IMG/VR virus record: IMGVR_UViG_643348547_000011
Source of the DNA: a virus
Lineage: Duplodnaviria; Heunggongvirae; Uroviricota; Caudoviricetes
DNA: 17,041 bases
Strand: one strand, 5' to 3'
The notes beneath the pieces were generated by a model. That model was not told where the DNA came from. It searched no databases and worked only from the letters and a program-made list of their open reading frames with translations. This document shows positions 12,556 through 13,865 of this stretch, in pieces. The first letter of the stretch is position 1. Every line of letters begins with the position of its first letter. The position numbers and the translations under genes were made by a program.

Positions 12556-12580
12556 TGAACCGCCCCGGGTTTCCTGGAGA
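12556..12580. repeat. IS629-like terminal inverted repeat (orfB-proximal end)
   Basis: TGAACCGCCCCGGGTTTCCTGGAGA; matches the reverse complement of 13841-13865 at 23 of 25 positions. Confidence 0.8.
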
Positions 12581-12597
12581 GTGTTTTATCTGTGAAC

Positions 12598-13488
12598 TCA
12601 GGCTGCCAGATCATCGTTTCCGATGGAAGCATAATAAGCTTTTTCTGCTTCTGCCGGAGGAGTATGGCCCAGCCTTTCCAGCAATCGTCGATTGTTATAC
12701 CAGTCCACCCACGTGAGTGTGGCCAGTTCCACTTCTGCACGGTTTTTCCAGCTCTTACGGTGTATTACCTCCGCTTTGTAAAGACCATTGATGCTCTCCG
12801 CCATCGCGTTGTCATACGAGTCGCCTGTACTTCCTGTTGATGCCAGTAATCCGGCTTCCTTAAGCCGCTGTGTGTAGGCCAGCGATACATACTGAGAACC
12901 TTTATCACTGTGATGGACCGTGCCGGACGGTCGACGGGCCCATAACGCCTGCTCCAGTGCATCCAGCACGAATGTCGTTTCCATGGACGATGAGACCCGC
13001 CACCCCACGATGTATCCGGCAAACACATCAATGATGAACGCCACATAGACGAAGCCCCGCCATGTGCTGACGTAAGTAAAATCAGCCACCCACAGCTGGT
13101 CAGGTCGTTCTGCCACGAACTGACGGTTTACGCGGTCGCCTGCGGCAACGGCTTTCCGGCTGATGGTCGTACGGACCTTTTTACCCCGGAGAACACCGGC
13201 AAGTCCCATAACCGCCATGAGACGTGCCACAGTGCATCTGGCCACTCTGATACCTTCCCGTAACAACTGACGCCAGACTTTACGCACACCGTATACCTTG
13301 TGATTTTCATCGTATACGCGCTGTATCTCTTTCTTCAGCCAGTCATCGCGCTGCGCACGGGCACTGCGTTTATCCGGATGATGTCGCTGTTGCTGACAGT
13401 GGTAATACGTTGACGGGGCAATATGCAGTTCGCTGCATAGCGGTCCGACCCCGTACTGCTCACGCAGCTTATCCAGCAGTGGCATCAT
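12598..13488 (-). CDS. IS3-family transposase OrfB (DDE integrase core; normally made as an OrfAB frameshift fusion)
   Basis: 296-aa ORF in the -1 frame relative to orfA, overlapping it at the A-run 13485-13492. The integrase core carries the DDE signature region (WVADFTYV..., [17 protein letters not shown]). Confidence 0.9.
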
Positions 13489-13811
13489 TTTTTCCAGAGG
13501 CGGTCGAACTCCGCCTTCGCAAAATAAGCGGAAGCCTGGCGAAGGATATCGTTACTGCGGCGCAGTTCACGATTTTCACGTTCCAGCTCTTTCAGACGCT
13601 GACGTTCAGCGGTGGTGAGCCCTCCATCACCGCCCCCGGTATCCCGCTCATGCTGGCGAACCCAGACACGCAGAGTCTCCGGCGTACAGCCAATCTTTGG
13701 AGCAATGGAACAAATTGTCGCCCATTGTGAGTCATATTCGCTCTGACTTTCCAGAACCATACGGACTGCCCGTTGACGGACTTCGGGGGAAAAACGAGTA
13801 TTTTTAGTCAT
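13485..13811 (-). CDS. IS3-family transposase OrfA (HTH/leucine-zipper)
   Basis: 108-aa [53 protein letters not shown]..., recognisable as IS629/IS3411-type OrfA; AGGTAAACAGG lies upstream of the ATG. Confidence 0.9.
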
Positions 13812-13840
13812 CCTGTTTACCTCTTTCTCAGGAAGTTTAG

Positions 13841-13865
13841 TCTCCAGGATTCCCGGGGCGGTTCA
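13841..13865. repeat. IS629-like terminal inverted repeat (orfA-proximal end)
   Basis: Reverse complement reads TGAACCGCCCCGGGAATCCTGGAGA. Confidence 0.8.

Follow-up and report, generated by a model that had tools for sequence, protein, structure and literature searches.

The window, that is, the whole stretch of 17,041 nucleotides analysed here, matches E. coli IAI39 (CU928164.2) at 100% identity over 15,278 bases and the O7:K1 strain CE10 at 99.96%. Its first letters lie shortly downstream of ssrA and its last ones within ypjCB, close to ileY. We take the O7:K1 lineage to be part of phylogroup F. The ssrA-proximal part of the window (positions 1-5278) is occupied by cargo genes, namely an EcoRII-like restriction-modification pair, a GIY-YIG gene, an HTH pseudogene and an acyltransferase gene. 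The ssrA prophages studied here carry the restriction-modification pair and the GIY-YIG gene at their ssrA-proximal end (1-3853 in the window), and some lineage members have, directly upstream of the restriction-modification genes, a P4-like satellite with AlpA, Ash and a D5-type primase (positions 600-5010 of records L011, L013, L014 and L017, loci in which ssrA was not located); this satellite is absent from the window strain. The acyltransferase gene (4253-5278) is an intact ORF of 341 aa in IAI39 and is split into two CDS in the RefSeq annotation of CE10, because two 1-nt indels differ between the sequences. Next to the cargo, the RefSeq annotation places the tail, baseplate and tail-fibre module of an SfV/SfI-like prophage remnant (5320-11708, minus strand), which is devoid of sheath, tube and the N-terminal half of the tape-measure protein.

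At positions 12556-13865 we found a complete IS629 element of the IS3 family, 1310 bp long and with its transposase on the minus strand. Its termini, TGAACCGCCCCGGG... and ...CCCGGGGCGGTTCA, are of the TG...CA type, and its imperfect terminal inverted repeats, with 25-nt arms that are 92% complementary, lie exactly at the element ends: IRR downstream of the transposase at 12556-12580 and IRL upstream of it at 13841-13865. Both transposase genes are on the minus strand; orfA (108 aa, 13485-13811) matches HTH_Tnp_1, and orfB (296 aa, 12598-13488) has a DDE integrase core, matches rve and scores 314 bits against the NCBIfam IS3-transposase model. The two frames overlap as in the -1 frameshift type, in agreement with the RefSeq description 'IS3 family transposase, programmed frameshift' and the annotated pseudoknot. 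The name IS629 rests on annotated copies, hundreds of which are 99.5-99.9% identical to the element of the window; the same copy in AR_0013 is named 'IS3-like element IS629 family transposase' by RefSeq. About 29 places in the carrier chromosome match IS629, nearly all of them being IS629 copies.

A sub-branch of the lineage has a group II intron (~2.27 kb, with an ltrA reverse transcriptase/maturase gene) inside orfB of the junction copy and in the same orientation, as seen at positions 1881-4141 of record L009 (AR_0013) and also in L013, L014 and L017-L019. The junction is therefore older than the intron, and the IS copy there is disrupted.

The earlier note described the element as lying between two truncated genes, and both fragments, on the minus strand, correspond to genes that are intact elsewhere. 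To the left lies the 3' fragment of an SfV/SfI-type phage tape-measure gene (11727-12555), in which 829 of 1836 nt are retained and ~1005 nt are absent at the 5' end. The fragment matches weakly the end of the TIGR01760 tape-measure model and is 99.9% identical to the intact genes of records L003 and L008. In L003 the intact gene of 1836 nt spans positions 21328-23163, the break is equivalent to 22158/22160, and the phage sequence reads ...CCAAGC-TGTGCC across it. To the right lies the 5' fragment of the autotransporter gene ypjA/ehaD (13866-15334, 1469 of 4575 nt), in which AIDA repeats were detected and the remaining passenger domain and the beta-barrel are lacking. The retained part is 100% identical to the intact ypjA of strain LR-28 (4575 nt), where the break falls at positions 12000/12001 of record L002 and the sequence across it reads ...GCCACT-ACCGTC. 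The IS and both flanking pseudogenes are already covered by the RefSeq annotation. The truncated ypjA frame extends 16 codons into the IS and stops at 13817-13819, 6 nt ahead of the orfA start codon (13811) on the same strand, and transcription from the ypjA promoter could run into the transposase gene.

The exact ends of the element place it between ...CCAAGC and ACCGTC..., and a direct repeat of these flanks was found neither at 3 nt (AGC vs ACC) nor at 4 nt (AAGC vs ACCG), in accordance with what the earlier note had read from the same letters. A mutated duplication, with AGC and ACC as its halves, was considered and rejected, the two flanks being different genes. As a control, an IS629-like copy in FWSEC0007 (record L008) is flanked by a GTA/GTA duplication. 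The absence of a duplication is expected for a rearranged copy and is no argument against the identity of the element as IS629. Copies of IS629 without a duplication are in fact common, as matching duplications of 3-4 bp were present at just 21 of 47 IS629 sites in O157 genomes (PMC3271280).

The 12 nt of ypjA that adjoin the right end of the IS (13866-13877, ACCGTCAGTTCG) read, in reverse complement, exactly as positions 13116-13127 inside the IS629. Outside the IS, 3 of the ~15,700 12-mers in the window match the IS on either strand, and the other junctions compared (the left flank of the window, ESDR8 and FWSEC0007) share at most 7-8 nt with it. The match was noticed post hoc and could be coincidental.

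The tape-measure fragment is preceded in frame by a leader encoded in the IS, as the earlier note had proposed, and this leader is real. The fusion ORF (11727-12740, minus strand) consists of 61 IS-derived codons, a junction codon and the 276 codons of the C-terminal tape-measure fragment, which keeps its native frame; gene callers place the start at the ATG at 12632, with a product of 301 aa. Of the three IS629 frames on the minus strand, one has no stop from 12767 up to the IS end, and stops close the others at 12613 and 12588. With one frame open to the end of every IS629, a downstream gene on the same strand will be in phase one time in three. No outward-facing sigma-70-like promoter was predicted by a scan of the tape-measure-side IS end, and no clear ribosome-binding site was found at the listed GTG start of the fusion ORF. 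The further idea that outward transcription from the IS expresses the downstream module fares poorly, given an open frame that is built into the element, the absence of a predicted promoter, the weak GTG start and the incomplete module.

Both junctions occur together in at least four of 5426 complete E. coli genomes, that is, CE10, N32, AR_0013 and OZ546943, the junction counts being lower bounds in 39-66 IS-rich records. All 10 further assemblies examined, which belong to the same lineage, contain the left junction, and the right junction is present in them wherever the locus extends that far. With the same lower bounds for the IS-rich records, neither junction was found alone in any of the 5426 complete genomes. 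The scar is restricted to one lineage. An IS-free relative with contiguous flanks, which would have spoken for a simple insertion, was also looked for: no genome among the 5426 joins the two flanks without the IS.

The earlier layout of the locus can be read from relatives. In these, the order is ssrA/attL, restriction-modification genes, GIY-YIG gene, tail, head and early genes, integrase, attR and the 3' end of ypjA. An intact prophage of this kind extends in Ecol_AZ146 from attL at ssrA to attR, with the integrase at the end far from ssrA; its att sites form a 189-bp direct repeat (positions 653-840 and 45747-45934 of record L007, 91.5% identical). The arrangement of ssrA, restriction-modification and GIY-YIG genes, which in Ecol_AZ146 is the ssrA-proximal end of the prophage, is common to 260 complete genomes, and the GIY-YIG gene is widespread among genomes. 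FWSEC0007 likewise contains an intact prophage, here SfV-like, which occupies this site in the same orientation and measures ~28 kb from the equivalent of the breakpoint to the integrase end. In LR-28, 10 bp separate the stop codon of ypjA, a gene convergent with ssrA, from the sequence native to the downstream side of ssrA, which indicates that ypjA is the first chromosomal gene beyond any ssrA island. Since relatives show ssrA, prophage, attR and ypjA in that order, the two flanks of the IS are collinear with the undeleted chromosome as reconstructed from Ecol_AZ146, FWSEC0007 and LR-28, in both order and orientation.

The missing stretch would thus comprise the 5' portion of the tape-measure gene, everything from there up to and including the integrase and attR, and 3106 bp of ypjA. 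Provided that there was a single complete prophage, the deletion would measure ~31-32 kb (~30 kb of prophage plus the ypjA end). No attR (a further copy of the 3' end of ssrA) was found in CE10, which fits a deletion. The reciprocal junction expected from an inversion was searched for with a synthetic query (ypjA 3' part, IS, tape-measure 5' part); it had no match at >=80% coverage in the 5426 genomes, and the four carrier chromosomes matched nothing beyond the IS alone, which argues against an inversion. Searches with the 3' part of ypjA and with the DNA that extends from the 5' portion of the tape-measure gene as far as the sheath gene placed the four carriers outside the best 40 of thousands of matching genomes, which is weak evidence that they lack these parts. 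Two 800-bp probes, combined with a lineage-specific tag, gave one extra match in each of the four carriers, probably at the second locus that every top-ranking genome also showed in one of those searches. A single match to the 3' region of the tape-measure gene is present in CE10.

Based on these data, the locus was very probably shaped by an IS629-mediated deletion, by whichever of two routes, and the earlier view that deletion or recombination between IS copies, not simple insertion, lies behind the junction is borne out by the lack of a duplication, the two gene fragments, the collinear flanks and the missing reciprocal junction. There is in our judgement an even chance that two IS629 copies in the same orientation underwent homologous recombination and thereby deleted ~31-32 kb. 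Before it, an SfV-like prophage would have been inserted at ssrA, with its cargo and tail end beside ssrA and its integrase and attR beside the 3' end of the convergent ypjA. One IS629 copy would have entered the tape-measure gene, with a target duplication AGC, and a second one ypjA, with a target duplication ACC. Recombination between the two would then have removed the missing 5' portion of the tape-measure gene, the genes for tube, sheath and head, the lysis and early genes and, in the same step, the integrase, attR and 3106 bp of ypjA. One hybrid IS would remain, with half of each duplication on either side, and the outcome would be an immobile, fixed prophage remnant and a dead autotransporter gene. 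Both genes are targets of IS629 elsewhere, the tape-measure gene in O121 WL1277 and ypjA in O157 and O55 strains, and the ~29 matches to IS629 in the chromosome imply that recombination partners are many. The anatomy, the collinear flanks, the single lineage and the missing reciprocal junction are observations; a pair of parental IS copies and the precise extent of the loss are deductions. Against this route counts the result that no genome with just one of the two postulated insertions was found among the 5426 complete ones; additionally, the 12-nt match at the right junction is not accounted for by plain homologous recombination.

We favour recombination between two copies over a one-ended, transposase-dependent adjacent deletion, a route that we consider possible but somewhat less probable. 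In this case a single IS629, either in ypjA or in the tape-measure gene and possibly helped by the IS-excision enhancer IEE, would have attacked with one end a distant site on the same molecule, so that the intervening DNA was lost and the IS stayed. A 'sloppy strand transfer' model is given in the IEE preprint, and adjacent deletions of such a kind are reported around IS629 and IEE. In strain ESDR8, prophage, IS629 and truncated ypjA were joined independently, likewise without duplication, and the 12 IS-like nt directly at the right junction might point to a target chosen by the transposase. However, the cited reports concern deletions that accompany excision of the IS, which here is complete and retained, and copy-out-paste-in transposition by itself is not expected to delete donor DNA. 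As far as the letters go, they contain nothing that would separate the two routes. We regard it as very unlikely that the right junction is anything other than passive, with the IS629 ends guided to self-like targets in one-ended deletions.

Other explanations have far lower probabilities. Copies of IS629 in opposite orientations could have produced an inversion or translocation, and the missing halves would then survive beside another IS629. The absent duplication is expected here too and the chromosome has many IS629 copies, but the predicted reciprocal junction occurs in none of the 5426 genomes (the four carriers matching the IS alone), the flanks follow each other just as they did in the earlier layout and in the same orientation, and CE10 has only one match to the tape-measure 3' region, so that this reading is already largely refuted and very unlikely. 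An IS-free deletion might have fused the tape-measure gene to ypjA before IS629 inserted at the joint, and in strain A14 a tail-fibre fragment is indeed fused directly to truncated ypjA at this locus, with no IS between them. A later insertion should nevertheless leave a duplication of 3-4 bp, of which there is none; the breakpoints coincide exactly with both IS termini, and no IS-free fusion of the two genes with these breakpoints exists among the 5426 complete genomes, which makes this order of events highly improbable. Just as hard to credit is a co-option of the scar, which would be compatible with a deletion and in which transcription out of the IS would express the leader-tape-measure fusion and the baseplate and tail-fibre genes to the benefit of the host. 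The fusion ORF is in frame, the genes downstream are intact and the scar is fixed across the lineage. On the other hand, an in-frame join is a one-in-three chance, no outward promoter-like site was seen and the start codon context is weak, and the module is without sheath, tube and half of the tape measure. Moreover, several of the retained proteins share accessions with an active-looking intact prophage, which suggests that their intactness reflects a recent origin and not selection. A false join across the repeated IS, finally, has next to no probability: IS629 is present in ~29 copies and repeats can be mis-joined in older assemblies, but the junctions are identical in four independent complete genomes, the left one recurs in every further assembly examined, and some junction copies are uniquely tagged by the group II intron.

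Whether by recombination between two copies, as we favour, or by a one-ended deletion, the feature is an ordinary and well-understood genome scar, and the phenomenon is already known. It explains why the ypjA/ehaD adhesin gene is dead in the O7:K1 lineage (IAI39, CE10 and relatives) and why a grounded prophage remnant there still has its restriction-modification pair, GIY-YIG and acyltransferase genes. It can serve as a lineage marker and as a note for annotators, and raises no new biological question.

The element itself resembles IS629/IS1203 (IS3 family) of O157:H7 in its 1310 bp, TG...CA termini, 25-bp imperfect repeats and orfA/orfB -1 frameshift, and differs from it by the lack of a 3-4 bp target duplication. 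Genomic deletions associated with IS629 in O157:H7, for which PMC9943667 cites Ooka (2009) and Kusumoto (2011), resemble the present case in that the IS borders a loss of tens of kb, prophage DNA is removed and neighbouring genes are inactivated; the window differs in belonging to the O7:K1 lineage and in having retained the IS, which was not excised. The tail and baseplate genes that remain share 97-98% identity with those of the serotype-converting Shigella phages SfI, SfII and SfV. Compared with intact lambdoid prophages at ssrA, the window has the same order of cargo, tail, head, early genes and integrase, but only the ssrA-proximal 12.5 kb are kept, without integrase, attR, head and lysis genes.

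The closest parallels are A14 and ESDR8, in which, as in the window, a deletion extends from inside an ssrA prophage into the 3' end of ypjA. In A14 the joint has no IS: a gp53-like tail-fibre fragment, its N-terminus missing, is fused to ypjA (positions 7342-11068 of record L006), of which 3151 nt are retained and the 3' end is absent. In ESDR8 an IS629 copy that is 99.5% identical and in the same orientation (9002-10311 of record L010) links the early/late region of a lambdoid prophage to a ypjA without its last 828 nt (3759 nt retained), again with no target duplication (ATGT-IS-CTCG). The breakpoints and the prophages are other than those of the window, which makes these independent events. 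Since every ssrA island abuts the 3' end of ypjA, deletions at the integrase end of such prophages repeatedly enter this gene, as A14 and ESDR8 illustrate.
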